Shown here: one piece after another, positions 3,636 to 54,570 of the stretch
How the letters are laid out: the number at the start of each line of letters is the position of its first letter
Numbering within the stretch: the first letter of the stretch is position 1
UHGV virus genome: UHGV-0320443
Direction: 5' to 3' (one strand)
Length of the DNA stretch: 55,576 nt
Source: a virus
The notes under the pieces: model-generated
Told to the model about the DNA's origin: nothing
The model's database searches: none
The model's input: the letters and a program-made list of their open reading frames with translations, nothing else
Position numbers and translations under genes: made by a program

Positions 3636-4068
3636 AGCCTAACTCCTTTCCATCTCCAACAGTGTAATAGACTAGACCATGCCTGATAGCATCATAAGCA
3701 TGCCTTGAGGACACTTGTTTTTCTTTGCCAATGAAAGTATCGATATATTTATTAGTAAACATATCTTTCTGCGATGGTAATTGTTCGATGAACCTAATGC
3801 TATTTCGTCTGCACAAGTATTTGATCACGCCGATCACTTCTACTTCAGGAAATGTATCCCAAGACTTGTGTTGAGCTTTCCATGCATACAAAGCAAATTT
3901 TTCAATTATAACTAAATCAATATGAGCAGTATTCCGATGGAGCCATAAGCTCAACATATGCAAACCAGGATCCTCGAGATAAGAGAACTCACCACTATCC
4001 CGCAGTTGACCATCTTCGAATAACGCATAGCCTGTCATGTGACCTGGATCGAATGTTACGATTCTCAT
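3592..4068 (-). CDS. RuvC-like Holliday-junction resolvase
   Basis: MRIVTFDPGHMTGYALF resembles the RuvC N-terminal motif. Start re-set to the internal ATG preceded by AGGAGG; the track ORF extends to 4140. Confidence 0.5.
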   Translation of the reverse strand: MRIVTFDPGHMTGYALFEDGQLRDSGEFSYLEDPGLHMLSLWLHRNTAHIDLVIIEKFALYAWKAQHKSWDTFPEVEVIGVIKYLCRRNSIRFIEQLPSQKDMFTNKYIDTFIGKEKQVSSRHAYDAIRHGLVYYTVGDGKELGYAQDIFRSVKGKNS

Positions 4069-10400: not shown

Positions 10401-10715
10401 AATAGTTCCGTTGAACTGTCTAATATTGTCTGGTAAGATTACGCTGACAACTCCATCTTCAGGATCTTCAGCTTGCATAGGAACAATAGTACGTCCCTTG
10501 CTAATATCTCTGTTAGGAGCCATTACCATATTAATGATAGCAAATTGTGATAAGTCAATCGGTTGATCTTCTTCATCAATCAATCGAATAATGAACTTAC
10601 CTGACTGCTTATCATAAGAGTAAAATCGTGCACCTAAGTCTGGCACATCACGTTCATCTGCGGAGAGTGCTAGGGTTAAAATTGCTCTTTTTAGATAATT
10701 CAAATCAGTTGCCAT
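7416..10715 (-). CDS. tail fibre / receptor-binding protein
   Basis: 1099 aa with an N-terminal coiled coil and S/T/N/G-rich beta-rich repeats, directly after Tal. Confidence 0.7.
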   Translation of the reverse strand: MATDLNYLKRAILTLALSADERDVPDLGARFYSYDKQSGKFIIRLIDEEDQPIDLSQFAIINMVMAPNRDISKGRTIVPMQAEDPEDGVVSVILPDNIRQFNGTIIAGVVAMNADNIKTHDFGYFRFEMQQSLIDANIENLSDFYVDEFEQLREQIRLIMQDTLDDIDAFKLNINTQLQELQNKINTARIDLDTLIAAINAAKINTRNVFDLSLITTPESLVRRRVPGNAVEIRGWGYELFNVEATSKMFKPNTTYHAKYTVRLLSLDGGALYSPSKAHGGLNLYSNVNNTFYPTIWIGEASVIDDFKDLKVGDTITRETTFTTPANFAEAQYKILSYSRRDTAGVTDLVRFEDIMVQEGTIFTGHQVSPNDVLTKYNEPFYHKNVFPDPKLTGTFIATPEPFNGATIEMSYISGGYLSLKNPSTTERLRIYWLMADMGINDNDLFQPFDVKVKIRLASVAKPIEIGFGSSNNMVLNPSYSWRYYTGTVQTQASNAFSIWLEPGQGIDIMELNIFKSLNSALYQGYEGLNIDTFVAQGNYKVRNMTGTIPPDITSTTFCYLTNEPLDNFTNVKQTLTIRTGLNLGNADYTYVRQRINSNWLPWQRVLTAMMDGNQASKTGADLNNEKISGEFVYINPINVPAGVGTIYGKIQRYGGAYVLQNITSANDPSLTYQRACINTVWSEWRKIPTLLSDGRVDTMAVDFNTLKETATIVNTSATNSPDGAASTSWYTDVVRYGSSGNYVYQRATRISSIYQNTYERQLFNGTWSPWKLLSSPYIDQVLGTTSDANKITTSQTIQLEATATSNLPTSGSGVYYYLETIARADNYVLQRATLRGGTMKTYTRQSHNGIWSAWSEDIDSTNNQTVGGLKNFTTRPTVNGAQVATNVEPTPLTGTVNWDSFDQPGRWYMSGIANGPKYLSNFGYLEVISHPSSVGAIQTYTDMDNNCIMRTRKNISGVSTWGPWKVIRLSLPEANLSYLTGWADYNTDTSSWQHAKVVRDGDTVTLAGTIRNTATFTPSNGQEHMANIPEGYRPKYNRNGIIMRSSGRTIYTCDVYTDGRLTNSTMVDPGINGYAGEQSAGKIFHISITYVGEDIAFF

Positions 10716-20841: not shown

Positions 20842-21882
20842 TTAGGCTGTTGGCAAAGTAATTTTTTGAACGTTGTCATCGATCGCGATATAAGCACCAC
20901 GACGAGTACGAGCAACTACTTGAGCTTCGATCAAACGAGACAAGTCAGCTAATGCAGAATCAATTCGCAAGCCGTGTTTAACAAATTCAATCAAACCACG
21001 TTTTGGACGAATTAAGAATGCAGTACCTTTTGGCACACCTTCGTAAGTGTATTGTTTTTTACCAACAGTTGTTTCCCAACCATCGTAGAAAATAACTTCG
21101 TTGATACCAGTTACACCAGGGAAAGGAGTAGCTCCTACAGTGTAGTTAGCAAAAGCAGCTTCGATTTGAACTTGGTCTTCTGAGCTAGCTAATAGCACAG
21201 TACCGGCACGATGATCTTTACGAGATGCAGTTAAAGCCGCATTCAATGTAGCGATCGTATTACGTTCTAAAGCAAAGTCACCAGTAAAAGTAGTAACCGC
21301 AGATGTTTGGTTAGCTGCTGGGTATTCATTGTATTTAATGATTGGGCCTAAGTGTAAGTCATTCAACAAAGCGTTGTAAGCTTCACCAAAAGCTTCATTC
21401 AATACTTGCATACCAAATTGTTCGTTGTAAAGAACCATATCTTCAGTGTATTCAAAACCTGCCGCGAATGCAGTCAAGCGAGTTGCAGGACCTTTTTCAG
21501 CAGATAATGCACCGAATTTGATTTCTTCACCTTCTTGCCATTCAGTAAAGATAACGTTACCGCGTTGAGCGAATGTAGCGTCAATCAATTTTGGCAATGT
21601 AGAATCTTCGATTGTACGGTAGATAGATTTGTAAAGCAATGGAACTTGCTCACGACCTAAATCTACATCCAATACGACTTTACGTAAAAGATCTTCAGCT
21701 CCTTGAGGAGATGTTAACATTTCACCTAAAGGTTTTGTGAATTCAATTGTTTCCATTTCCCCATTTACTACTTCAGATTCGGCAACGAATTCTTTACCAG
21801 CAATTGAGAAAGGTAATTCTTTTTTATAACTTTGTCCAGCCTTTGCAGCTAACAAAGTATCATGACTTGTAATTTTAACCAT
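20842..21882 (-). CDS. major capsid protein (HK97 fold)
   Basis: 346 aa, following the scaffold and a small head protein. Composition is typical of an MCP. Confidence 0.7.
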   Translation of the reverse strand: MVKITSHDTLLAAKAGQSYKKELPFSIAGKEFVAESEVVNGEMETIEFTKPLGEMLTSPQGAEDLLRKVVLDVDLGREQVPLLYKSIYRTIEDSTLPKLIDATFAQRGNVIFTEWQEGEEIKFGALSAEKGPATRLTAFAAGFEYTEDMVLYNEQFGMQVLNEAFGEAYNALLNDLHLGPIIKYNEYPAANQTSAVTTFTGDFALERNTIATLNAALTASRKDHRAGTVLLASSEDQVQIEAAFANYTVGATPFPGVTGINEVIFYDGWETTVGKKQYTYEGVPKGTAFLIRPKRGLIEFVKHGLRIDSALADLSRLIEAQVVARTRRGAYIAIDDNVQKITLPTA

Positions 21883-21906
21883 TGACTATTTCCCTCCAAT
21901 CTTTTC

Positions 21907-22254
21907 TTAACCCTGAGGTAAAAGAATTCCCCAAGTTACACCATTTGCATCACTTTTTTCAGTTACTCGCAAGTAAGCTGGATCAGCCGGAACTTCTTCT
22001 GCTGCAGCCGCAGCTACTTGGAATTTACCTGCTGAAGTGTAAGTAATTAAATCTCCTACTTGTGCTGTTAAGCCTTCTTCAGAAAATTCATATTCAGCTT
22101 GCTCAATGTTGATAACCATGTTATCCCCATTCAAAGCGTTACCAATTACGAATCCGTGGAAGCCATTAACAACTGCGAAATCACCATCGTTATAATCTTT
22201 GTCGGCTACAACTTTGACGGATTTACCATCAGACACCTTTGTACGAATTGCCAT
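21907..22254 (-). CDS. small head protein (decoration-like)
   Basis: Start re-set to MAIRTKV, preceded by AAGGAGG. Lies between scaffold and MCP. Confidence 0.4.
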   Translation of the reverse strand: MAIRTKVSDGKSVKVVADKDYNDGDFAVVNGFHGFVIGNALNGDNMVINIEQAEYEFSEEGLTAQVGDLITYTSAGKFQVAAAAAEEVPADPAYLRVTEKSDANGVTWGILLPQG

Positions 22255-35875: not shown

Positions 35876-36214
35876 TTAATCTTCCTCTCCATTTCTTATA
35901 TATTTATTATCTACTAAATACACCAAATATGACAGGGCAGCTAGTCGTTTGTAAATTTCATATTCCAATTGTAAATCTTCAATCTCTCGATTCTCTCGAA
36001 GATCTATTTGATAGTTAACAATAACGGCTTGTAAGGAATCGAAAAATCCGATCCAATTGTGACTATCTAACTCAGCGATCATCGTATGAAATAAATCAGG
36101 CGTGCTTAGCTCTGTTTCTTTAAAAATTGCTTCTACAGTAGTGTCTAAGTCAAAATCATGATTGGTAGCTTCCTCCGCAATAATTTGACTAATGATACTT
36201 GACATAAAAATCAT
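35876..36214 (-). CDS. hypothetical acidic protein
   Basis: ORF only. The true start is probably the second ATG (MSSIIS). Confidence 0.45.
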   Translation of the reverse strand: MIFMSSIISQIIAEEATNHDFDLDTTVEAIFKETELSTPDLFHTMIAELDSHNWIGFFDSLQAVIVNYQIDLRENREIEDLQLEYEIYKRLAALSYLVYLVDNKYIRNGEED

Positions 36215-36416
36215 TCCTTCCTTTATCTTATATATTTATTATATATTAGACTTGACTGCATTGACAGGGCCACGACGTATATATGCAAAAATAAAAGGTT
36301 ACGATTTTCTTACGATGATTTTTAGTACCTAATAAATATATGAAAAGATAATGGGTATTCTCTCATAATCATGCAGAAGAAAGCGATCGATTTTTAGATC
36401 CATCTATAACTCTCGG

Positions 36417-36835
36417 TTAATTTAATTTAAGTTAATAAAACATGCTTTTCTTAACCAGTAGTTCGAACTTTCGGTTAAGAAAAGCATTAAAAAGTAAATG
36501 AAATTAATCGTGTCAATCCTTCTACATAGTGTCAAAAATTGTTTTTATATAATTTATTTATTTATTATTATTTTTTAGTCCTCCCCTAATATATATTATA
36601 TTATACAGCAAAATCAAGCAGTGGGCAATACGTCCAATTGATTTTTGAAGTGAGTTACTAATCCTCCACGTTTGCAAAAAGGACGGCAGACAATCGTAAA
36701 GGGAGGGGCGTCTCGCTGGTCTCATACTACAAGGGCTCTTGGTTTAATAATATTTAATAAAGCAATAAAAAAGCAACCAAAAGTTCGAACTTTCAGTTAC
36801 TTTTCCATATGATTATTAACTTAAATTAAATTAAA
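36417..36835. repeat. pair of about 20-bp AT-rich inverted repeats (TTAATTTAATTTAAGTTAA / TTAACTTAAATTAAATTAA) bounding a 400-bp non-coding segment
   Basis: Arms at 36417-36436 and 36815-36835. The same arms recur at 54267-54280 and 54442-54459. Confidence 0.55.
36442..36487. promoter_or_regulatory. perfect 15-bp-stem hairpin with a palindromic loop (AGTTCGAACT); a second AAAGTTCGAACTTT palindrome lies at 36779-36792
   Basis: ATGCTTTTCTTAACC / GGTTAAGAAAAGCAT flanking the loop agtagttcgaactttc. Confidence 0.5.
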
Positions 36836-36883
36836 TAGATATATAGGGAGTGACCTGTTTCTGCGTGTCTCTTCTTCCGATAT

Positions 36884-37102
36884 TTAATGGATGCCATCGA
36901 GAATCATAGCTTTACCTACTTCTAGCATTCCAACCAAGTGGAAAGTACCTTCTTGACTATAAAAAATTTCTACTTCATCAGAAGGACGCTGAACTACGAT
37001 ACATATTTGCTCAAAATCTTTTGCTTGATCCAATACCCAAGCTAAGAACTCCTCGTTAGTTTGTCCTCTCGCTTTCTTTCTCTTTAAGTCTTTAAAATCC
37101 AT
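36884..37102 (-). CDS. hypothetical protein (72 aa)
   Basis: ORF only. Confidence 0.4.
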   Translation of the reverse strand: MDFKDLKRKKARGQTNEEFLAWVLDQAKDFEQICIVVQRPSDEVEIFYSQEGTFHLVGMLEVGKAMILDGIH

Positions 37103-37123: not shown

Positions 37124-37555
37124 CTAAGTATAGTCAAACACACTTTTACCTAATTGATGTGACTTGACTATCTCGTAGACAAAGTCTTGCATTAGCTTAT
37201 CATTGGTCTCAGCATCTTTAGGAATTCCGCCATAAACCTGGATATGCCTCTTGACCAAGTTCAATACACTTACGTAACTATAAGGTACCTTCTTGGTGAT
37301 CACTTCACAAGCTCGGAGTAATCTAACAACTACTTCCTTATGCAGGCCTAATTGCGCGAAAGCGAGTATATTACCCATCTCTTCCGCAGATGAATATTTC
37401 TCTTCTGTCTCCACATTTTCAACGCCGAGTATCTGACCACACAAAGGTAGATCAGAAACTATTGACACTGCTGTTTCTTTATCTTTGGCAAATACTGTAG
37501 TTTCTCTTACATCATTTAAGGCATTGATATAAGTTACTTTGAATTGTTTAGCCAT
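37124..37555 (-). CDS. hypothetical protein
   Basis: Start re-set to MAKQFKV (AGGAG RBS). Confidence 0.45.
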   Translation of the reverse strand: MAKQFKVTYINALNDVRETTVFAKDKETAVSIVSDLPLCGQILGVENVETEEKYSSAEEMGNILAFAQLGLHKEVVVRLLRACEVITKKVPYSYVSVLNLVKRHIQVYGGIPKDAETNDKLMQDFVYEIVKSHQLGKSVFDYT

Positions 37556-37574: not shown

Positions 37575-38138
37575 TCAATAACCATTCTTCTGACGATCGA
37601 TATTCTCTTGCCATTTCTTATGATAGGCCTTCGTAATTTCATCTGCGGAAAGATTCATCATCTCGCCTAATTGCATGAAAGATACCCAAGACATTGCTAA
37701 GCATTTCATATCAGCCATAAGCCCTGCGGTCGTAATGAATGAAGTTAGTCGATTTACCATCGAAATAAACAGAGCATTTTTCGCGGAACTATCTCGAAGC
37801 GTGTATTGATCCAAAGGTCTACGAACCTCAACAAGCTCCGCTATTCTATTCGTAATTTTGTATGTGGGTGAACCATCCTCTAACTGATTAAAAATACTTA
37901 GGTAGAAGTGAATACAGTCAACATATTCTTCGACCAAAGTTTCCTTAGGCTCTTGATTCAGAGACCAGACTTTAAACCAACGAGCATCGTTAGCCATTTC
38001 AGCAAGCTCTACAACCAGAGCAGTTACAGTATTGACTAGACGCTGTTCACGCGTCCAGACAATACCATGTTGTTCAATTACCATATCATCTAATGCTCGC
38101 TGCTTTGTACGTAAGTCTTGAATATTAATTTCTAGCAT
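37575..38138 (-). CDS. all-alpha NTP pyrophosphatase (dimeric dUTPase / MazG-like)
   Basis: LVVELAEMANDAR and EEYVDCIHFYLSIF resemble the dUTPase_2 ExxE / ExxDxxHF motifs. Confidence 0.45.
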   Translation of the reverse strand: MLEINIQDLRTKQRALDDMVIEQHGIVWTREQRLVNTVTALVVELAEMANDARWFKVWSLNQEPKETLVEEYVDCIHFYLSIFNQLEDGSPTYKITNRIAELVEVRRPLDQYTLRDSSAKNALFISMVNRLTSFITTAGLMADMKCLAMSWVSFMQLGEMMNLSADEITKAYHKKWQENIDRQKNGY

Positions 38139-46562: not shown

Positions 46563-47273
46563 CTACTTCATACTTAATAATGAAAGTAATTCCTGTTTTG
46601 CTGAAGCGTTCGCTGCAAAGACTCCTCTAACTGCAGATGTTGTAGTTGTTGCTCCACGTTTATGTGCGCCTCGGCCACACATGCAGTAATGCTCTGCGTT
46701 AATAATAACGGCAGATCCGATTGGTTGTAATACATCTTCAATGGCGTCAATGACTTCCGTTGTAAGTTTTTCTTGAACTTGGAATCGTTTTGCATATCCA
46801 TCCAATGTTCTAGCGAATTTGCTAAGCCCAGCAATTTTATTTGAAGGAATGTAGGCAATGCTAGCTGTTCCGAAAAACGGAGCAAAGTGGTGCTCACACA
46901 TAGAGTTGAATGGAATGTCTTTGATAAGGACAATGTCTCGGCCGTTAACGTTAGCTTCAAAATCTTTGAGCAAGTGTTGCTTAGGGTCTTCGCCATATCC
47001 CTCTGTGTACTCAAGGAAGGCTTTAAGCACTCGGAAGGGCGTCTCTTGTAATCCATCACGTCTAAAATCATCTCCACATATAGAAATTAAAGCATGCAAT
47101 CCTTGTAAGGCAACATCAATAGGATTATCATGATCTTTATCAGCACGCATTTCTGATACCGTAGGAAAATCATAAGCAGCCTCTTTAGGTAATCTTGGGC
47201 GGATTAATGCTTCCAGTTTTTCCTCTTGTTCCTTAGTTAATAAATTGTCTTTAAAAATATTCTCTACTGTCAT
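46563..47273 (-). CDS. folE: GTP cyclohydrolase I
   Basis: MCEHHFAPFFG active-site motif. Start re-set to MTVENIF (GAGGAG RBS). Confidence 0.8.
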   Translation of the reverse strand: MTVENIFKDNLLTKEQEEKLEALIRPRLPKEAAYDFPTVSEMRADKDHDNPIDVALQGLHALISICGDDFRRDGLQETPFRVLKAFLEYTEGYGEDPKQHLLKDFEANVNGRDIVLIKDIPFNSMCEHHFAPFFGTASIAYIPSNKIAGLSKFARTLDGYAKRFQVQEKLTTEVIDAIEDVLQPIGSAVIINAEHYCMCGRGAHKRGATTTTSAVRGVFAANASAKQELLSLLSMK

Positions 47274-47277
47274 GTAA

Positions 47278-48123
47278 CTATACTCCTCTCGCATTTGCAT
47301 ATACTAGTGTGTGTAATTGTGGTAATGGACGTACGTTGTTAAAGTCGGGATCTTCTAGAACTTTATCCCATAGCCAATGTAGCTTCTCTAATAACCGTTC
47401 CGATACATCACCTGCGGAAGTAGAGTCTTCGTTTCCTACTGATACGTACATTGGTTGAGTTCCGCACTTATCTTCATAACGTTTCACTACTGTCCGAGCA
47501 TATTCGAAATCTTCATCATTAAAGATAACTACTTTCATAGTCCAGTTAACGTTATTTTCATTCAAGCGATCGACAATTTTGTCAAGTACTCGCCAATTAG
47601 TTTTCATTAGTGAACTAGGTGGTTTAGGACTCATTACAAAGTCATCAATGTGTACGAACCAATCCTGCCAGTTCACTCCTTGTGTTTCGACAGAGAATTT
47701 GAATTCATGTTCTTGTTTCATAATCCGAATAAATTCAGCCATCTCTTCGCCTACTAGAGAAGGGTTTCCTCCAGTCAGAGTGATATGCTTACAATTAGTT
47801 CCTCCACTAGAAAGAGCTAATACTTTTTGTTCTAGTTCACGTGGAGTGATCCATTCAGGTTCTTGAGATCCATCCCAAGTAAATTTAGAGTCACACCATG
47901 AACAACTATATTGGCAGAAGGCGGTACGAACAAAAATAGTCTTTTGTCCGATAACCATACCTTCACCTTGAATCGTAGGACCAAAACATTCCATGTAAGG
48001 AATTAAACCTTTACGTTTTTCCATCTTTAATCGATCAGGTCTATAATTTTTAGGACTTTCATTATAGGCTTCGATCTTTTCTTTCAACTTTGGGTTGCTA
48101 ATGTTTTGAGTACTAGGTTTCAT
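47278..48123 (-). CDS. queE: 7-carboxy-7-deazaguanine synthase (radical SAM)
   Basis: FGPTIQGEG...AFCQYSCSWCDSKFTW shows the CxxxCxxC cluster and QueE N-terminal signature. Confidence 0.8.
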   Translation of the reverse strand: MKPSTQNISNPKLKEKIEAYNESPKNYRPDRLKMEKRKGLIPYMECFGPTIQGEGMVIGQKTIFVRTAFCQYSCSWCDSKFTWDGSQEPEWITPRELEQKVLALSSGGTNCKHITLTGGNPSLVGEEMAEFIRIMKQEHEFKFSVETQGVNWQDWFVHIDDFVMSPKPPSSLMKTNWRVLDKIVDRLNENNVNWTMKVVIFNDEDFEYARTVVKRYEDKCGTQPMYVSVGNEDSTSAGDVSERLLEKLHWLWDKVLEDPDFNNVRPLPQLHTLVYANARGV

Positions 48124-48132
48124 AATGTCCTC

Positions 48133-48690
48133 CTAATCAATCATGACTTCATCTGGATCATATTCAATTCCTTTGTGTTTGTGGATAGCATAAACCACAA
48201 GAGCACCAATACCTTGAAGAACTGTTTTAACAATAATTTGTCCGATGATAGCATTAGGTACTTGATCCCAAGTTAAAACACCCATTCCTAAAGGTGATAG
48301 ACCTATCAAGACAAAGATAGAACTGTCAATTGTTCCACCAAACAAACCACTAACAAAGATTCGTACGTACATTGGTTGCTTCAATCGAGTATAAACTTCG
48401 GTGTCCATTGATTCGGAAAAGATGAATGAGATCGCAGAAGCGAAGACCACCCATAAAGTATCCCCTAAGAAAGCAGAAACAATAGCGCTCAAGATCAACG
48501 CAGCTACAATAATTGAATAAGTCTTCTTACGTCCAAATTTGTTTTGAACTAAGTCACGAAGGATAAAAGTAAATCCGATAAAGAAAGTTCCAAACGGTAC
48601 AAAGAAAGGCCCGAATGCTACTGGTGCGAAAGTTGCTGTTACTACGTTTGCTGCTGTGATCCCTAATAAGTATAAAAGTATTCTAATCAT
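48133..48690 (-). CDS. yhhQ: YhhQ-family (DUF165) membrane transporter, putative 7-deazaguanine precursor importer
   Basis: 185-aa multi-TM protein with the YhhQ-like start ...ANVVTATFAPVAFGPFFVPFGTFF...ILRDLVQNKFG. Embedded in the que operon with 4-nt overlaps. Confidence 0.55.
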   Translation of the reverse strand: MIRILLYLLGITAANVVTATFAPVAFGPFFVPFGTFFIGFTFILRDLVQNKFGRKKTYSIIVAALILSAIVSAFLGDTLWVVFASAISFIFSESMDTEVYTRLKQPMYVRIFVSGLFGGTIDSSIFVLIGLSPLGMGVLTWDQVPNAIIGQIIVKTVLQGIGALVVYAIHKHKGIEYDPDEVMID

Positions 48691-49214
48691 TTTTGTTCTC
48701 CATTCGTAGTTAGATTGAAATTAGTATCCATAAAGTTTTCGCCATCAAAGAACACAACATTTTCGAACATGTTTTCACTGATAGATAAAATACTTTTGAA
48801 CATGTAGTTGCGATAGTCGTCACGATGAATCATAGCAGAACCAGTAGGCGTCTCCCATAAAGCAACTCGCCATACAGGTAGATCATGTTTATGACACCAC
48901 CACATAATGAACAAGGCCATATTTTCCGCAGTCGTCCTAAAGCCAAAGCGAACAAATTTTGTATCGATAGATTCCATAACTGGTTCATTGCCTTGAGCTA
49001 AGAATGCATGATCTAAATGATCTAGCAATGGTTTGATCTTTTCTTTAACATCAGTAAAGTCCATTACCATACCACTTGACGACCCACGATGCTCTAATTC
49101 GCCTTTCATTGATACTTGTAATTTGTAAGTATGGCCATGCACATTAGCACATTTACCATTATGTCCTACTAGTTGGTGAGCTGAATCAAAGGTAAATTCT
49201 TTTGTGATTATCAT
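48687..49214 (-). CDS. queD: 6-carboxy-5,6,7,8-tetrahydropterin synthase
   Basis: TKEFTFDSAHQL...CANVHGHTYKL contains the QueD/PTPS motifs. The start overlaps the queC stop (TAATG). Confidence 0.8.
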   Translation of the reverse strand: MIITKEFTFDSAHQLVGHNGKCANVHGHTYKLQVSMKGELEHRGSSSGMVMDFTDVKEKIKPLLDHLDHAFLAQGNEPVMESIDTKFVRFGFRTTAENMALFIMWWCHKHDLPVWRVALWETPTGSAMIHRDDYRNYMFKSILSISENMFENVVFFDGENFMDTNFNLTTNGEQK

Positions 49215-49954
49215 TAGAATAATCCTCCTTGATAAGCATAAGATTGACAACCTGCCCAATCAATATAGTTTTCATATTTAACTGGATCTACAATATGATT
49301 GTATTTGAAAGCATTAACACGATCAATACATGTACCACAATGACCACATTGATCTTCATGCCCTTCGTAACAAGAACGAGTCAAGTGTAAAGGAGCGCCT
49401 AATTCTAATCCTAAAGTAACTACACCAGCTTTGTTTTTCATTAATAGAGGAGCATCAAGATTTACTTTATGTCCTGAGCCTGCAAAGATCGCACGATCCA
49501 TTGCTTTGTAAAATTCTGGAGTACAGTCCGGATAAGCTGAACCAGCTGCATCATCTGAATGAGCTCCATAAACAACTTTGCTAGCACCAATGCTATATGC
49601 ATATGCTGCGGCTTGACTTAACATTAAACCGTTTCGGAAAGGAACATATGAATCAACAGTACCTTCACCATTTTCTTCAATAATTTCTGCATAGCTCTTA
49701 TGAGATAATTCTCCATTGCCTTTAAGCAAAGTGCTATCACTCTTTGAAAACAGCTGCGGATCTACTGTTAGTACTACGTGCTCCACGCCATATTCTTTTG
49801 CTACGTTTTTTGCATTCTCGATCTCATTGTCATGTTTTTGACCATAAGAAAAAGACAGTGCGTGGACATTATCAGGTCCTACTTTCTTTACACTGTCTGC
49901 CAAACACACCGTGGAGTCCAAGCCACCACTTAATAATACTACTACTTTTGTCAT
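49214..49954 (-). CDS. queC: 7-cyano-7-deazaguanine synthase
   Basis: VVLLSGGLDSTVCLA PP-loop and C-terminal CGHCGTC zinc motif. Start re-set to MTKVVV (GAGGA RBS). Confidence 0.85.
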   Translation of the reverse strand: MTKVVVLLSGGLDSTVCLADSVKKVGPDNVHALSFSYGQKHDNEIENAKNVAKEYGVEHVVLTVDPQLFSKSDSTLLKGNGELSHKSYAEIIEENGEGTVDSYVPFRNGLMLSQAAAYAYSIGASKVVYGAHSDDAAGSAYPDCTPEFYKAMDRAIFAGSGHKVNLDAPLLMKNKAGVVTLGLELGAPLHLTRSCYEGHEDQCGHCGTCIDRVNAFKYNHIVDPVKYENYIDWAGCQSYAYQGGLF

Positions 49955-50581
49955 ATTCCTTTTCCTCATTTCATTTTTTATTTTATCCTGGTGGTTTGTT
50001 TCACCAGTCTAACTGGACCGGAGAGGAATCGCACCTCTCAATTAACTAAAGTAATATATGAGCGCTCACTACATTACCGTCGATCCAAAAAGAAAAACTA
50101 AATAGAAACCGTTACCTGAGAGAGATGTTGGGAGCTCATACCGCGAATTTGTGTTTTGTGATGAGTATGAGACTTATTTTTTAGAAAAAACTCAGGAGAG
50201 CTCCCTTGAGCGGATTTATTACACGGGACTAAAGCTCTACCGTGATCAGTCTTTCCTGACAGCCAATAACTACTGCACACTTGTACTCAATGTGATGCGG
50301 TGAGCAAGTTATACGAGCTTGCTCCATTGATGCAAATGCGACATACAACTTTATTTATTATTCGTACAACAAATGACTTTTCCCCAACGCGCTTGAGTTG
50401 ATTAATCATTTATTTTGTAGAGAGTTTTCCCAGTAACGATTTCATATTTAGTTTTCAATGTTGCGCACTATGATTGAAAAAGTTGAATTTCATGTATTTG
50501 ATTGAGACAGAAAGGCAAAGTTAGTCAACCAGAGTGTTACGCGAACTTAGTTATTTGATGGCCATCATTTAACTATACTTA
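49955..50581 (-). ncRNA. long structured 5' leader / candidate regulatory RNA of the que operon
   Basis: About 600 nt between a good promoter and queC with no credible ORF, GC above background and several stable hairpins (for example 50021-50039, 49988-50007, 50130-50205). Confidence 0.3.
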
Positions 50582-50610
50582 ATTATAACATATAATCATC
50601 ATGACCTCAA
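50582..50610 (-). promoter_or_regulatory. promoter TTGAGG-17-TATAAT directly after the primase stop
   Basis: On the minus strand, the -35 is at 50610-50605 and the -10 at 50587-50582. Confidence 0.45.
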
Positions 50611-50625
50611 CGGGCGAAATTCGTG

Positions 50626-53595
50626 TTATTTCATTTTAATGATTTGTAGAATCTCGTCCTCACGCTTCGACCGGAACTCCCGCAGTTGTTCATTCCATTT
50701 ATGAGTGACTCGATACACACTAGAGTTACCACCAGTATGAACGTAAATGATTTGCAAGTCAATCATGATCTTAATAGTTGCCTTAGCTTCTTCTGTATCA
50801 ATATTAAGTGTTTCTTCCAATGTCTTAGAAGTAAAGCTACCTTTGATAGAATCAACAATATTGACAACTTCTGAATTGATATGGAAGAAACGGAAAATTT
50901 TCTTCTGATCGTCTCCAGTAACAATATGACGACGTTGTTCGTCTTTAGCCATTGCTCGATAGCCTAATGTAGGATTGCTATAAATCTTTTCTAAGAAATT
51001 AGCTACGAATTCTACATGCTCCGATTTGACAATGACTTTTTCATATGTCTCATCAGTACTAAACAATCTTGCAGCACAGGCTACAGCAAGTCGACTTAAT
51101 TTAACTTTCATTGAGTTACGTTCTACAATAGATAAAGATGACCCATCATATTCGCGACCCATATTGGAAGCTTCTTTTAATAATCGACTATAAGCTTCAG
51201 CAGTAAATTCTACCTTATCATTTTCAGGTGTCAAGTAACCTTTAGCATTTCTTGACCAAGCCCACATAATTAATCGTTGACATAAGTCCTTAGTATATTT
51301 AACTGGTCCTTTAGGTAAATGAGATGTGTCTCTATTAATGATAGATTCATCGACCTCATCACGTCCAACTCCCATAGCAAAATCAAAACGAGCGATATCC
51401 TCAGACCGTCCTACTAAATCGATAATTGCTTTAGCACCGTATGGATAGTCCTTCATGTGTTTAGCACCATTACCTACACGAGGGTTAGAAATCCAAATTG
51501 ATCTTGTCCTAGCATATGCCTGACCAATCTTAGCTTTATTGATTTCTACGATACCACGAGAACGCATAGAAGACATAGCACCAAAGTCATCTTTAGATAA
51601 TCCAGATGCTTCATCTAAAATTAATAACTTACGATCGTTCTGTGGAAACTTACCCCAGGTGATTGTCCATTGATCATTACCCATTTGTTGTACAGTTCCT
51701 GTTAAACCTGTCAAACGAGTGTTCTCAACTTCAATCATATCTCCAGCTTGATAATATTCAGCCATGTACTCAGCTGTCTCAGATTTACCAGTACGTGGAT
51801 CTCCAATAGTTAACAATTCTAACCAGCCACGAGCCTGCAATTTATTATCTAAATGGAAACGCAATACAGAATGATATACCAAATCATAAGCAATGACTAA
51901 TTCTTTCCTGTCCCAGATACGAGTGTAAAGTTCTAAGTCGCTAGCAATTTCATACATCTTGTCTTCCACAGTTTGATCATCTGCGGGTTGAAAGATCTTG
52001 AGCTCTTCGATTTCTTCGGGTGTAGGTTTAAAGGCATCCATCTCTTCACGTATCGGTGTAGCCTTGGTAACTAGGTAAGCTACGTAACCCATGTCAGGAT
52101 CTGATGTACGCAATGCTTGCAATTTGTACACTCGGTTAGAAGTAACTGACTCCCTTGGCTTGTCATAAACATGGTAAGCTCTTTGTACATCAACTGAATC
52201 ATCACTAATGGTTCTGGAGAATTTTTCTACACTAGGACCAATATGCAATACTTCAATGTTGTAAGACTCAATTTCTTCAAACTTGTACATGTTATTATTC
52301 TTAGGTACACCTAAAGCTTCTTTCAATAACATTTCTCGTTTGTCATCGCTGACACCGGCAAATTTCATTGTGTCTCGAGTGATCTCAAAATTAATATCAA
52401 AGCCTTCTTTTAATTGCTTTTCAGTTAGACTACGTAGTACACATTGTCTACCAGGTACTAATTCAGGGTCATAATAATCAACAGACACTCGTAGTACTTT
52501 TGGTGCAGTAAAGATATTAGAACTTCGCCCAATAATCATAGCTTCGATCTCAATAGCTTTGTTATTGAATGCTGGATTGTAAGTTGCCTCACTAAGGCTT
52601 GTAGGAATAAATTCTGATTCTGCTAATGTACCTTTGTTGAGTTCTTTTAAATCTTCTTCAACAGTAGGGACAAATAATTTAGACTTAGTAAGTACTTCAT
52701 CATAGAAGTCATCTTTAGTTTTTCCTAGCTCAACAATAAAGTCAGTAAAATCTATATGTGGTTGAGGGTACTCACAAATCCGAACTTCGGCAGCTACCTC
52801 ACGTAAGTTTAATGCCTCACGTTCAGCACCTGATCTACCAGCATCGTCACCGTCGTAACAAATAAATACTTTCTTATCTCTAAAGTAGTGATCCATACAA
52901 CCACCCTTAGGCCATTGTCCAGCACCACCAGTTTGTGTGATTGAAGGAATGCCTAATTGTCTAGCTAATGCTGCATCGGTCTCACCTTCGAATATAACGA
53001 CCCAACCGACATTAATGAAGTCATGATCTAAAGGCCACAGATAAGATTTCGTATATGCATTCTTAGTATTAATAAATTTTGCTTTCTTAGCACCCATGCG
53101 ATACTTTCTTATATTAATAAGTTTTCCATCTAATGAATAAACAGGTATTGTATAACGCTGTGTGTCCGGATCATATCCTATTTGTCTTTGCTTGATTGTG
53201 TTTAAAGTAAATCCGCGTTTATTCATAAATTTTTCTAGGAATTTAGGGTGTTGAAGTAATGTTTGATGATATTCTTCAGCTATCGATTCATCCATAGGAA
53301 ACGCGAGTTTTCCTTTGCGTTCGAATTGCTGTTGTAGCTTAATTGATTCACCAAGAGGGAAATCATACCATTCTACTAACCAAGCAGCGATATCACCTCC
53401 GCCACCATTTTGTCCTGCATCACAGGCTTTACAGTTCCATAATCCGGTAGATAAATTTATATGCATTGAAGGGGTAGTGTCTCCGTGAAAAGGACAACAA
53501 ACTGCTACTTCTTCGTCTCCATCCATCGGCATCGGAAGTCCTGGTATATAGTCCTGATAAAATCGTCTATACTTGAACTTTGTTTCTTCTGCCAT
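50626..53595 (-). CDS. bifunctional DNA primase (zinc-finger + TOPRIM) / helicase
   Basis: CCPFHGDTTPS...CKAC (CHC2 zinc finger), VVIFEGETDA...FICYDGDDAGRSG (TOPRIM) and the C-terminal P-loop GDPRTGKS. 989 aa. Confidence 0.8.
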   Translation of the reverse strand: MAEETKFKYRRFYQDYIPGLPMPMDGDEEVAVCCPFHGDTTPSMHINLSTGLWNCKACDAGQNGGGGDIAAWLVEWYDFPLGESIKLQQQFERKGKLAFPMDESIAEEYHQTLLQHPKFLEKFMNKRGFTLNTIKQRQIGYDPDTQRYTIPVYSLDGKLINIRKYRMGAKKAKFINTKNAYTKSYLWPLDHDFINVGWVVIFEGETDAALARQLGIPSITQTGGAGQWPKGGCMDHYFRDKKVFICYDGDDAGRSGAEREALNLREVAAEVRICEYPQPHIDFTDFIVELGKTKDDFYDEVLTKSKLFVPTVEEDLKELNKGTLAESEFIPTSLSEATYNPAFNNKAIEIEAMIIGRSSNIFTAPKVLRVSVDYYDPELVPGRQCVLRSLTEKQLKEGFDINFEITRDTMKFAGVSDDKREMLLKEALGVPKNNNMYKFEEIESYNIEVLHIGPSVEKFSRTISDDSVDVQRAYHVYDKPRESVTSNRVYKLQALRTSDPDMGYVAYLVTKATPIREEMDAFKPTPEEIEELKIFQPADDQTVEDKMYEIASDLELYTRIWDRKELVIAYDLVYHSVLRFHLDNKLQARGWLELLTIGDPRTGKSETAEYMAEYYQAGDMIEVENTRLTGLTGTVQQMGNDQWTITWGKFPQNDRKLLILDEASGLSKDDFGAMSSMRSRGIVEINKAKIGQAYARTRSIWISNPRVGNGAKHMKDYPYGAKAIIDLVGRSEDIARFDFAMGVGRDEVDESIINRDTSHLPKGPVKYTKDLCQRLIMWAWSRNAKGYLTPENDKVEFTAEAYSRLLKEASNMGREYDGSSLSIVERNSMKVKLSRLAVACAARLFSTDETYEKVIVKSEHVEFVANFLEKIYSNPTLGYRAMAKDEQRRHIVTGDDQKKIFRFFHINSEVVNIVDSIKGSFTSKTLEETLNIDTEEAKATIKIMIDLQIIYVHTGGNSSVYRVTHKWNEQLREFRSKREDEILQIIKMK

Positions 53596-53615: not shown

Positions 53616-54188
53616 TTAATTTGCTGGGTCGTATTCATACAAGCACTCATTACATTGCCATGTACCGTCGCCATAATCTAAAATGTCATTGCTATTACAC
53701 TTAGGACAAAAGTCAGGCGCTTCGAGAGGTTCATCTGCGGATGTGGTCTCAGAGATGGCCGTAGGCTCGGGTTGAGGCTCTATATCAAAGACAGGGCTGG
53801 CAACATCTAAGTGCTCAGCTTCTTCAACGGTAGATGAAATGTCTTCAATAGTTTTAGTAGTGTCAAAGAACGTAGCGCCATTGTAATTAATTGATAAATT
53901 ATCACTAATTAAATCAGCAACGAAACGAGGAAGAAATTCATGTAGGCATCCTGCCCAAAACTTATCTTCAATCAGTTCTAATTGTTTCTCAGAAATAACT
54001 ACACCAATATGCACAGGTGTGAAATCAGCACGTTCGGTATTCAAATTTAATTCTCGAACTATTTGAGATACTCGTGCTGGGGTAATATCTAATTCTTCAG
54101 AAATTTGTTTTTGATTAAAACCTTCGTCGTACAGCCTCGCGACATCTTTGTATTTCTGAATCTTAGGGTGAACATTATTCTCGCTCAT
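53616..54188 (-). CDS. putative transcription regulator: sigma-70-region-4-like HTH plus C-terminal zinc ribbon
   Basis: GFNQKQISEELDITPARVSQIVREL (HTH) and CPKC...CNEC. Confidence 0.5.
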   Translation of the reverse strand: MSENNVHPKIQKYKDVARLYDEGFNQKQISEELDITPARVSQIVRELNLNTERADFTPVHIGVVISEKQLELIEDKFWAGCLHEFLPRFVADLISDNLSINYNGATFFDTTKTIEDISSTVEEAEHLDVASPVFDIEPQPEPTAISETTSADEPLEAPDFCPKCNSNDILDYGDGTWQCNECLYEYDPAN

Positions 54189-54540
54189 GAAAAATCTCCT
54201 TTATTAAAAAATAATTAGAAAAAGAAAGAAGAGACAAATTAATATCTCTTCTATATTATACACCTATTTAATTTAATTTACAATAATTTTTTTGCGATTA
54301 ATTAAATATAATTAAATATAATTATATATTTTTTCTCTTCATAGACTTTCCTATCTATAATTATATATCATTAAAATAGCAATAGCAACAAGTTTTTTCA
54401 TGACAACTATTTATGGGTGTTTAATTTTTTATATGGAAATCAACTTAAATTAAATTAACTAGAGTTGAGGAAAGAGATACAAAAAATATTCTTCTTCTTT
54501 TAAAAAACATACTATCATTATAATGTTTAAAGAAAGCAAA

Positions 54541-54570
54541 TAAAAAACCCCTATCTTTACGATAGAGGTT
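54541..54570 (-). terminator. rho-independent terminator after the 169-aa gene
   Basis: CCTCTATC-gtaaa-GATAGGGG stem followed by UUUUUU on the minus strand. Confidence 0.5.

Follow-up and report, generated by a model that had tools for sequence, protein, structure and literature searches.

By sequence comparison, the window (the whole stretch of 55,576 nucleotides analyzed here, a 55.6-kb siphophage genome whose distant kin are Weizmannia phage Youna2 and Bacillus phage BSP7) carries two loci that are real, strongly conserved, paralogous non-coding cis-acting modules. The module, which consists of inverted arms, an internal promoter, a G-rich box and an A+T tract, was found in five lineages (the window, L002, BSP7, L033 and Youna2; nine loci in total) and at the same two syntenic places in all four lineages that could be tested for both, the L033 sequence spanning locus 2 only. 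The distance between the loci is about 17.8 kb in the window and 19.9-21.7 kb in Youna2, BSP7 and L002. We tentatively propose that they are paired, transcription-activated replication origins with initiator-binding arms, an interpretation that we hold with slightly less than even confidence. Paired origins or regulator-binding elements had been suggested in a first-pass annotation of this DNA; the pairing stands as a recurring two-locus architecture in five lineages, and the function is what we infer from it.

The phage group of BSP7, BSTP and Youna2, whose hosts are B. subtilis and W. coagulans, is poorly studied. The literature on Youna2 mentions no origins, repeats or promoters, and nothing was found for BSP7. 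Comparison of the DNA of locus 1 (36100-37000) and of the 24.6 kb around it with 50,697 phage records gave no match by DNA similarity, and the lineages were therefore compared through their proteins. A primase profile recovered one true clade member from IMG/VR and one Youna2-like contig (L029) from JGI metagenomes, and the SAP-domain neighbour gene used as a query against IMG/VR recovered nothing. Exact-protein look-ups of the 112-aa and DUF669 ORFs gave no match, probably because gene callers picked different start codons. Variability was scored among 93-95%-identical relatives. GC skew is uninformative as an origin indicator in the window because nearly all of its genes are co-oriented.

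Locus 1 lies in a 669-bp gap (36215-36883) between two minus-strand genes, which encode a 72-aa protein (36884-37102, on the stop side) and a 112-aa protein (35876-36214, on the ATG side). Its downstream arm, IR-L (36417-36438, plus strand), and its upstream arm, IR-R (36813-36834, minus strand; TTAATTTAATTTAAGTTAATAA, four tandem TTAAK pentamers), face inward and form a perfect 22-nt inverted repeat, which weaker complementarity lengthens to about 90 nt. They had been described as 20-bp repeats bounding the gap; the repeats are indeed perfect and slightly longer than that, but they enclose a 418-bp segment and not the entire gap. At locus 2, the arms IR-L (54268-54286, plus strand; TTAATTTAATTTAcaATAA) and IR-R (54440-54458, minus strand; TTAATTTAATTTAAGTTGA, one mismatch) face inward in the same way and span 191 bp, with IR-L overlapping the -35 element and spacer of the downstream promoter P2. 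The full arms of the window hold about four tandem TTAAK pentamers each, and the weaker locus 2 arm holds two to three. With up to three mismatches allowed, the motif TTAATTTAATTTAAGTTAA has four independent sites (36417+, 36834-, 54268+ and 54458-) compared with 0.18 expected, a count attained in 0 of 100 dinucleotide-preserving shuffles, so that the recurrence of the arms at a second locus in the same inverted layout, as first noticed, is borne out.

Both locus 1 arms have zero variable columns among the relatives. Between lineages the arm sequences are wholly different and are built of short iterated units; those of Youna2, BSP7 and L033 (GGAAAGGAGTGTAAAGTTCAAAA and similar) are not AT-rich low-complexity DNA and have the same four-site layout. 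The arm-to-arm distance at locus 2 is nearly constant, at 185-200 bp in four of the five lineages. Judged by eye, neither the arms nor the hairpin loops contain a convincing match to a DnaA box or a Spo0A box.

Equivalents of a sigma-A-type internal promoter, Pint, were predicted at all nine loci examined (promoters and transcription start sites are consensus predictions throughout). In the window, Pint is predicted on the minus strand at 36600-36628 (TTGCCC-17-TATAAT, overlapped by TTGATT-18-TATATT at 36617-36588) and at 54360-54388 (TTGCTA-17-TATAAT), in each case with 10 of 12 consensus matches and a perfect TATAAT, 20-30 bp upstream of the A+T tract. The window genome has about ten intergenic gene-strand matches to such consensus promoters. 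At about +1, Pint is followed at nine of nine loci in the five lineages by a G-box, GGGGAAGtCTAt, with the consensus rGGGGAAGtCTAt; the minus-strand copies of the window are GGGGAGGACTAA (36575-36586, locus 1) and AGGAAAGTCTAT (54341-54352, locus 2). The idea that the G-box is a general promoter feature was rejected on finding its promoter-context occurrences confined to the two loci, in a test that is partly circular because the PWM was trained on the same sites.

Downstream of Pint and the G-box, the modules of the clade have an A+T tract of 30-55 bp with 80-97% A+T. The tracts of the window, at 36530-36574 in locus 1 (7% GC) and 54290-54336 in locus 2 (9% GC), are candidate DNA-unwinding elements. 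According to computed nearest-neighbour stability, no other 40-mer of the window genome is less stable than the locus 2 tract (z = 4.7), and the locus 1 tract comes second (z = 4.4). The tracts likewise rank first and second in BSP7, L002 and the more distant L032, first in L033, and first and fourth in Youna2. The locus 1 tract has zero variable columns among the relatives. Between lineages only the A+T content is conserved, and both sequence and strand polarity vary, the tract being A-rich in the window, T-rich in Youna2 and (TA)n in BSP7, L033 and L002. The tracts therefore fit a role in DNA melting better than a role as RNA.

Locus 1 has 3.1% variable columns among the relatives compared with 11.2% in the flanking genes, which is 3.6-fold less (Fisher p = 4e-13). 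The ORFs of 37-55 aa inside the gap gave no family matches. In the 55-aa ORF (36558-36725), five of the six substitutions seen among relatives change codon position 1 or 2; the ORF was rejected as coding on this pattern, and the region is non-coding, in agreement with the original description. Rfam returned no hits for the whole window at the gathering score and, with E up to 10 allowed, only chance-level hits (E of 1 or more) for 36150-36950, and no conserved RNA element was found with it at the loci beyond the G-box. A GC-richer core at 36630-36740, also reported before, lies directly upstream of Pint, with 47% GC compared with 30% in the whole gap and 38% in the window. It has 2.2% variable columns, and a GC-rich block occupies the equivalent place in locus 1 of Youna2, BSP7 and L002. 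A tRNA-like nature of the core (GGTTCGATC in BSP7) was considered and rejected, as it has no T-arm fold and the ARAGORN scan of the window found neither tRNA nor tmRNA.

Locus 1 has two hairpins. Hairpin A (36443-36488, minus strand) has the perfect 15-bp stem that was seen at the outset, formed by ATGCTTTTCTTAACC and GGTTAAGAAAAGCAT at 36443-36457 and 36474-36488 (-22.3 kcal/mol, z = -6.8). Followed by GUUUUAUU and with zero variable columns among the relatives, it is the predicted terminator of the Pint transcript. Hairpin B and its U-run (36765-36808, minus strand) were identified in a terminator scan as the intrinsic terminator of the upstream operon; because of G-U pairs the hairpin is more stable on minus-strand RNA (-19.1 kcal/mol) than on the plus strand (-6.1). 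Its apex is the 14-bp palindrome AAAGTTCGAACTTT, which had been taken to be duplicated; a single perfect copy exists (36780-36793), whereas the copy at 36458-36471 matches at 12 of 14 positions, with AGTTCGAACTTT as the common part. On these features, both hairpins are gene-strand (minus) intrinsic terminators. An earlier proposal of anti-termination sites thus gains no specific support: the hairpins are ordinary terminators, and the search for conserved RNA elements found none besides the G-box. The Pint transcript of locus 1 is accordingly predicted to be about 150 nt long, non-coding and terminated, with no start codon after its Shine-Dalgarno-like G-box; clear termination after Pint at locus 1 was found in the window and L002 only. 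Outside the arms, the promoter P2 of locus 1 (36238-36267, minus strand; CTGTCA-18-TATAAT) is predicted to drive the 112-aa gene, and a near-duplicate of this promoter is found at 35936-35906.

Locus 2 forms the head of an operon within a replication and recombination module that includes an SNF2 helicase, a PD-(D/E)XK nuclease, AAA_24 and DUF669. A predicted terminator after the DUF669 gene (54542-54568, minus strand; -14.8 kcal/mol, then a U-run) insulates it from upstream transcription, and analogous terminators lie upstream of the locus in BSP7, L033, L002 and L032. Its P2 (54255-54283, minus strand; TTGTAA-17-TATAAT), which is followed by a 5' stem-loop at 54227-54252, is predicted to drive the two genes that come immediately after locus 2 in every lineage. 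A mini-ORF after the G-box of locus 2 was rejected as a gene, its ATG being missing in the relative L037.

The first gene of this operon, which precedes the primase gene in all lineages, encodes a 190-aa protein (53616-54188, minus strand) with an HTH of the sigma region-4/LuxR type and a C-terminal CxxC...CxxC zinc ribbon. The HTH resembles those of NarL, FliA region 4 and KorA, every match being under the curated cut-offs. The gene had been called sigma-like, but with only this HTH and the zinc ribbon its product is, from its domain content, not a full sigma factor. We consider the protein a candidate for binding the arms. The class of its recognition helix correlates with the class of the arms, a correlation that depends in essence on a single evolutionary change, with phylogeny as a confounder; in L032 the protein is without the HTH and the locus without inverted arms. 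However, the HTH is the most conserved part of the protein, which would be unexpected if the DNA that it binds is replaced entirely between lineages and counts against a role as arm binder. The second gene encodes a 989-aa fusion of a DnaG-type primase (Zn finger and Toprim) with an MCM-family AAA+ helicase (50626-53595, minus strand), a candidate for the helicase loaded at the loci. The helicase matches archaeal and eukaryotic MCMs only, SaPI Rep not being matched by sequence, and the fusion protein is least conserved in a few stretches that include its C-terminal ~100 aa.

If the loci are origins, the terminator would shield each module from upstream transcription, the opposed iterated arms would flank a sigma-A promoter firing in the direction of the genes, and the Pint transcript would start with the G-rich box and enter the A+T tract at once. 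We suggest that a phage protein would first bind the arms, the candidate being the HTH/Zn-ribbon protein, perhaps along with the variable C-terminal part of the primase::MCM fusion. Transcription from Pint would then open the tract, where the G-rich 5' RNA may nucleate an R-loop, and the primase-MCM helicase would be loaded there. Because the downstream arm of locus 2 overlaps the operon promoter, arm binding there would also autoregulate the HTH-primase operon. Locus 1 might itself fire as a second origin. Another possibility, as proposed for SPP1 oriR, is a fork-stall site, bound by the initiator, at which replication switches to the recombination-dependent mode. The non-random arms, the syntenic modules, the least stable tracts, the low variability and the adjacency of replication genes argue, at a strength that leaves us a little short of even confidence, for origins. 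Against them, consensus promoters like Pint are common in the window genome, and Pint of locus 2 could be the first of two tandem operon promoters.

By analogy, modules read as origins would resemble those of SaPIs, SPP1 (oriL/oriR), T4 (oriF/G) and the lactococcal phage c2. SaPI origins consist of an AT-rich region flanked by oppositely oriented penta- or hexanucleotide iterons and are bound by self-loading Rep helicases of the MCM clade, fused to a primase in the PriRep of SaPI5 (PMC9371898, summarising Ubeda 2007 and 2012). In the modules described here, opposed, lineage-specific iterons similarly flank a central AT-rich region, and locus 2 adjoins the operon of an MCM-family helicase fused to a primase (the 989-aa protein), a fusion also found in SaPI5 PriRep. 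They differ in that they lie upstream of the helicase operon, whereas the SaPI ori lies downstream of rep; in having an internal promoter and a conserved G-box and in occurring twice per genome; in that the foremost candidate for binding is a separate HTH/Zn-ribbon protein; and in that the helicase is not detectably similar in sequence to SaPI Rep.

The two origins of SPP1 comprise repeats and an AT-rich unwinding element (PMC6316719). In this Bacillus siphophage, as here, two regions (about 13 kb apart in SPP1, about 18-22 kb here) have repeats in common along with the AT-rich unwinding element, and one copy lies in a long intergenic segment between transcription signals while the other is at the initiator gene. 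The SPP1 repeats, by contrast, are direct, oriL lies within gene 38, no internal promoter or G-box has been described there, and the gp38 initiator, gp39 loader and DnaB-type gp40 helicase are unrelated to the proteins found here. Without homology to gp38, gp39, gp40 or the ori, the modules are an analogue of the SPP1 system and not a member of it.

The T4 origins oriF(uvsY) and oriG(34) consist of a promoter and a downstream unwinding element and use an R-loop primer (PMC3016281). As in T4, the promoters of the modules stand directly before an A+T-rich tract whose exact sequence is immaterial, several origins per genome would be present, and a part in priming or opening the origin is proposed for the transcript, the R-loop here being a supposition. 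The primary origin of T7 is likewise a promoter with a downstream unwinding element. Flanking inverted iteron arms are not known from the T4 and T7 origins, and the T4 promoters are MotA-dependent, whereas the promoters here look purely sigma-A-like. In lactococcal Ceduovirus (c2-type) phages, the ori is a non-coding region that lies between two promoters, PE1 and PE2, the first of which gives a non-coding transcript (PMC7150918). The likeness to c2 lies in this non-coding region bounded by early promoters, in a transcript (that of PE1) implicated in initiation, and in unrelated sequences occupying one place in different phage lineages. Unlike the modules, the c2 origin is single, lies where divergent early and late modules meet, can replicate plasmids when phage proteins are absent and has no described inverted iteron arms.

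Beyond these likenesses, it can be speculated, at a probability we consider low, that siphophages of this Bacillus type use a composite origin not described before, in which inverted, fast-evolving sites symmetrically load an MCM primase-helicase, the conserved G-rich 5' RNA (GGGGAAGUCUAU) made from a host-RNAP promoter nucleates an R-loop in the adjacent unwinding element, and the whole is duplicated. Symmetric loading would follow archaeal, eukaryotic and SaPI logic, and an R-loop in an unwinding element that of T4, ColE1 and c2. In such a design, the two copies might bracket the whole ~18-22-kb replication and nucleotide-metabolism module.

The main alternative, which we consider rather unlikely, is that the loci are transcription-control modules, in which the arms are operators and a regulator, for example the LuxR/sigma-region-4-like HTH protein, bridges or loops 190-420 bp and switches Pint and P2; the AT tract would merely be a leader or UP-like DNA, and the arrangement would be comparable to the early-late switch by p4 and p6 in phi29. 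In phi29, p4 sites flank the A2c, A2b and A3 promoters, the early and late promoters are divergent, and the origins lie at the genome ends and are protein-primed. The resemblance is that a Bacillus phage has inverted-repeat sites for protein binding distributed along about 200 bp of intergenic DNA that contains promoters. Each locus does mark an operon boundary, where terminator, module, P2 and genes follow one another; IR-L of locus 2 covers P2 elements, the neighbouring gene encodes the NarL/FliA/KorA-like HTH, and helix class tracks arm class. A dual role is also conceivable, as in the autoregulated Rep genes of iteron plasmids. Such control, however, leaves unexplained why in every lineage a tract of genome-lowest stability, conserved in composition only, lies downstream of Pint, a feature without known counterpart in phi29, and why the non-coding Pint transcript of locus 1 ends before any gene. 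Moreover, P2 lies 75-150 bp outside the arms in Youna2, L002 and locus 1 of the window, and a switch would have no divergent or late promoter as its target, since the genes flanking the loci are co-directional.

We regard it as improbable that Pint serves a small-RNA gene, whose short non-coding product (~150 nt at locus 1, from the G-box to Hairpin A) would act in trans on phage or host mRNAs, with the arms incidental or regulatory. Locus 1 has the layout of such a gene (a promoter, ~150 nt and a strong terminator), the 5' sequence is kept in all lineages, and the region is strongly conserved. Outside the 12-nt G-box, however, the sequence and the purine/pyrimidine bias of the transcript body differ between lineages, the (UA)n and A-rich bodies do not fold stably, Rfam gives no match, locus 2 has no terminator before the downstream gene, and the G-box resembles a Shine-Dalgarno sequence and not an anti-Shine-Dalgarno seed.

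Inverted repeats around a promoter-bearing segment, in two copies per genome, could also suggest a mobile or invertible element, either a MITE with terminal inverted repeats (miniature mobile elements had been among the first suggestions) or a promoter-carrying switch flipped by a site-specific recombinase. This is very improbable, as the positions are syntenic in all lineages while the arms are lineage-specific, target-site duplications were not found, the interior orientation is constant in all metagenomic relatives (five contigs for locus 1 and four for locus 2) and in all lineages, and no transposase, integrase or invertase family was detected in a profile scan of 30 window ORFs or is annotated in the Youna2 and BSP7 records. 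Functionless chance similarity of AT-rich low-complexity intergenic DNA, which the (TTTAA)n-like window arm in a 38%-GC genome might suggest and which the first-pass annotation had named as grounds for discarding its own proposal, is refuted by the shuffles, by the invariance of the arms among diverged relatives and by the non-AT-rich equivalents in Youna2, BSP7 and L033, and we give it almost no credence.

The modules mark cis elements for replicon building and for engineering of the BSP7, BSTP and Youna2 phage group, and they correct the annotation of small ORFs in these gaps. With different arms and a conserved G-box and geometry, the five lineages form a ready set for specificity swaps. 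If the modules are transcription switches, they would still show where the early programme is regulated and what the HTH/Zn-ribbon protein probably targets. If the origin interpretation is true, these phages would provide a tractable bacterial-virus system in which a primase-fused MCM-type helicase is recruited to a compact, duplicated origin that unites initiator-binding inverted repeats with transcription-driven opening.

The window (55,576 bp, 38% GC) carries nearly all of its genes on the minus strand and looks like a complete siphophage genome. It is identical to the metagenomic contig ERZ28648238 scaffold_38 (55.6 kb) over the stretches compared, and a DNA-level comparison with phage records found no match to it. 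The nearest named relatives by DNA polymerase (59% amino acid identity) are Weizmannia phage Youna2 and the Bacillus subtilis phages BSP7, BSP19, and BSTP5/8/10/12. On the minus strand, genes for an SNF2 helicase, a PD-(D/E)XK nuclease, AAA_24, and DUF669 precede an intergenic module at about 54268-54458 (locus 2), which is followed by an HTH/Zn-ribbon gene, a DnaG-primase::MCM helicase gene, queC/queD/Vut_1/queE/folE, and the family-A DNA polymerase gene. A dUTPase_2 gene and a 72-aa gene then lead to the gap at 36215-36883 (locus 1), small genes, and the terminase-to-tail-to-lysis genes. The polymerase is a single 855-aa ORF in the window and is annotated as two pieces in Youna2 and the BSP7 group (L001, L012), with intervening ORFs in some records, a split which suggests an intron or intein-like insertion in these relatives.

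All the features described in the first-pass annotation of the two loci are present, with small corrections. The inverted repeat of locus 1 is perfect and 22 nt long (36417-36438/36813-36834), but it encloses 418 bp rather than bounding the whole 669-bp gap. Its arms do recur at locus 2: a 19-mer with ≤3 mismatches has four independent sites, two per locus and all inward-pointing, against 0.18 expected, a count reached in 0/100 shuffles. The 15-bp stem at 36443-36488 (hairpin A) is perfect as described, whereas only one copy of the supposedly duplicated 14-bp palindrome is perfect (36780-36793), the second, in the loop of the other hairpin, matching at 12/14 positions. The GC-richer core (36630-36740) has 47% GC versus 30% for the gap. 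The gap is non-coding, as had been proposed, because its ORFs lack family hits and 5/6 substitutions among relatives in a 55-aa ORF fall at codon positions 1 or 2.

Following its genes as they are transcribed, locus 1 consists of the stop of the 72-aa gene, the upstream arm IR-R, terminator B, the GC-rich core, a predicted internal promoter, Pint (36628..36600, minus, TTGCCC-17-TATAAT), a G-rich box near its +1 (G-box, GGGGAGGACTAA, 36586..36575, minus), a 45-bp AT tract (7% GC), a pair of TTGACAC boxes, terminator A, the downstream arm IR-L, and a 200-nt leader with a predicted promoter, P2 (CTGTCA-18-TATAAT), before a 112-aa gene. This promoter-plus-leader unit is duplicated (36268-36228 and 35936-35896, minus; GCCCTGTCA-N18-[T/G]ATAATAAATATATAAGA), one copy standing before the 112-aa gene and one before a SAP-domain gene, and the gene strand of the window has just three CCTGTCA sites. 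Locus 2 runs from the DUF669 gene through a terminator, arm IR-R, a predicted Pint (TTGCTA-17-TATAAT), a G-box (AGGAAAGTCTAT), a 47-bp tract of 9% GC, arm IR-L, P2, and a 5′ stem-loop to the HTH and primase::MCM genes; its IR-L overlaps the −35 element and spacer of the predicted P2 (TTGTAA-17-TATAAT). The HTH-primase operon transcript predicted from P2 begins with this stem-loop (54227-54252, minus; ~10 bp, −12.6 kcal/mol, then UUCUUUU), which could be a 5′ stabiliser or attenuator. In the close relative L037, both substitutions within it lie in the loop or on its margin; one of them changes a terminal U-G pair to U-A, and the remaining stem is unchanged.

The two hairpins of locus 1 are terminators on the gene strand. 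Hairpin B (36765-36808) folds with −19.1 kcal/mol in minus-strand RNA versus −6.1 kcal/mol in plus-strand RNA because several pairs are G-U, and is followed by UUUUUUAUU; only the minus strand has GUUUUAUU after hairpin A (−22.3 kcal/mol). Each sits just within an arm and both share the apical sequence AACCnnnAGTTCGAACTTTCrGTTA, indicating a true inverted duplication of ~90 nt.

The comparison of sequences across lineages is what we consider decisive. Youna2 has an entirely different 23-mer, GGAAAGGAGTGTAAAGTTCAAAA, in exactly four copies forming two inward-facing pairs, one in a 665-bp non-coding gap and one spanning 188 bp between the DUF669 gene and homeodomain-like and primase genes. Arm motifs likewise mark two loci in the window (TTAATTTAATTTAAGTT), BSP7 (ATGAAAGAAAATG-type), and the IMG/VR contig L002 (AAAAGTGAATTT), and locus 2 only in the short Logan contig L033 (AAAGGAAAGAAACGGAAAGT); in every complete genome, no multi-copy word family present in both orientations is longer than the arm motif. 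The arms are arrays of short units, namely TTAAK pentamers in the window, GTGAAT in L002, and G[GT]AAAG or TGAAAG hexamers in Youna2, L033, and BSP7. The interior order is the same in 9/9 loci: a predicted sigma-A-type promoter, a G-box (consensus rGGGGAAGtCTAt, 6-8 nt after the −10 element), and 30-55 bp of 80-97% A+T. The exception in spacing is locus 1 of the window, where the G-box is 14 nt from TATAAT and 1 nt from an overlapping TATATT. At two loci of the distant lineage of L032 and L038, whose primase is 36-37% identical, the promoter and AT tract are kept together with an element resembling the G-box; direct AT-rich repeats replace the inverted arms, and the small protein lacks an HTH.

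Across 8 kb, the close relatives L004-L006 are 93-95% identical; among them, 3.1% of columns vary within the 669-bp gap compared with 11.2% in nine flanking genes (Fisher p = 4e-13), with zero changes in either locus 1 arm, hairpin A, or the AT tract. Conservation of locus 2 is about that of its neighbouring genes, and the ATG after its G-box is lost in L037, which excludes a leader peptide there.

Ranked by nearest-neighbour duplex stability in 40-bp windows, least stable first, the AT tracts are #1 (54297, z = 4.7) and #2 (36538, z = 4.4) in the window, #1 and #2 in BSP7, L002, and L032, #1 and #4 in Youna2, and #1 in L033 and L038. Base composition alone is conserved between lineages: read on the gene strand, the tracts of the window are rich in A, those of Youna2 and L002b are rich in T, and BSP7, L033, and L002b have (TA)n. 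This argues that the tract may act by DNA melting rather than at the RNA level. Both ends of the linear GenBank record of BSP7 (L011/L012) lie within the (TA)n tract of its locus 1; since sister phages are differently permuted, they are probably an assembly break at low-complexity sequence and not a physical end. In L032, an RNase H (PF00075) gene (21395-21961) lies immediately upstream of the second AT-tract locus, a position that may be suggestive given that R-loops are processed at T4-type origins; the scanned window ORFs gave no match to an RNase H family.

Immediately downstream of locus 2 is the gene for a 190-aa protein. This carries an HTH of LuxR/NarL or sigma region-4 type and, at its C terminus, a CxxC...CxxC zinc ribbon, every domain match being below curated cut-offs. 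It is the fastest-evolving protein of the module (20-31% identity). Two classes of its recognition helix occur in step with the arm classes, ISESxVSxxKK with GAAAG-core arms (Youna2, BSP7, L033) and TPxRVSQxVR with AATT-type arms (window, L002), a pairing that is only suggestive because it amounts to about one evolutionary co-change. The following gene encodes a DnaG-type primase fused to an MCM-family AAA+ helicase, which matches archaeal and eukaryotic MCMs at E ~5e-8; the C-terminal ~100 aa of the fusion are poorly conserved.

Between this gene and queC lies a non-coding gap of ~650 nt (49970-50625, minus) with its own predicted promoter (TTGAGG-17-TATAAT, 50610..50582) and a highly structured predicted RNA (606 nt, −162 kcal/mol, z = −5.4) for which Rfam gave no match even when E values up to 1 were allowed; L037 has this gap, and Youna2, BSP7, and L032 lack it (≤ ~170 nt there). 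The 7-deazaguanine gene set beyond it is full (46563-49969, minus: QueC, PTPS/QueD, radical-SAM QueE, GTP cyclohydrolase I) and includes a Vut_1 (YhhQ-like) transporter gene; scanned ORFs neighbouring the cluster gave no TGT/DpdA-like match. An asymmetric motif, CCGCAGNNGA, has 25 dispersed sites in the window versus 0.30 expected from dinucleotide shuffles, for example 2239-2248(−), 4000-4009(+), 10654-10663(−), 37384-37393(+), 37639-37648(−), and 53731-53740(−). The sites are intragenic, in reading frames that differ between lineages, which points to a DNA-level signal; they alternate strictly in strand at 1-26 kb, and neither locus holds a site or marks an orientation switch. The hexamer CCGCAG is enriched 3- to 6-fold in Youna2, BSP7, and L002, with the same downstream context. 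A link of CCGCAGNNGA to the 7-deazaguanine DNA-modification genes, to nicking, or to priming is possible.

Inverted short-repeat arms, a minimally stable AT tract, an adjacent primase::MCM gene, and two copies with the same arms together give the loci, by analogy, the appearance of replication origins. Among described systems, the nearest are the SaPI origins, where Rep helicases of the MCM clade, which load themselves and are primase-fused in SaPI5, bind penta- or hexanucleotide iterons placed in opposite orientation on the two sides of an AT-rich region (PMC9371898), and SPP1 oriL and oriR, two loci with repeats and an unwinding element, one of which occupies a long intergenic segment; stalling of forks at oriR has been proposed to set off the change to concatemeric replication (PMC6316719). 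An internal promoter that would fire into the tract has counterparts in T4 oriF and oriG, where a promoter and a downstream unwinding element yield an R-loop primer (PMC3016281), and in the c2-type ori, which is non-coding, lies between PE1 and PE2, and has a PE1 transcript that is likewise non-coding (PMC7150918). From this combination and these parallels, we propose that the loci may be transcription-activated, initiator-bound twin origins, and that binding at the locus 2 arms would in addition make the initiator operon autoregulated. What is directly observed is the anatomy of the sequence, its conservation and synteny, the ranking by stability, and the genes nearby; from these we infer promoter activity, a start site, protein binding, melting, R-loop formation, and initiation at the loci.

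The main alternative, that the loci are purely regulatory operator or switch modules, seems to us rather unlikely, and such a role could coexist with origin function. That each module is a small-RNA gene is quite improbable: the layout of locus 1 would fit, but the transcript body is not conserved. Miniature mobile elements, raised in the first-pass annotation, or an inverton are rejected given the fixed orientation, syntenic positions, lack of a recombinase match among scanned ORFs, and absence of target-site duplications. Chance similarity is excluded by the shuffles and by Youna2's own four-copy arm motif.

In the literature found on these phages and in their GenBank records, the elements of the loci go unmentioned. 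Read as an origin, each locus would join iteron arms in inverted orientation to a host-type promoter between them, a conserved G-box, and an unwinding element, a new combination present in two copies that bracket the replication module. The comparative pattern is clean and testable, and the function we infer from it bears on MCM-helicase loading in a bacterial virus.
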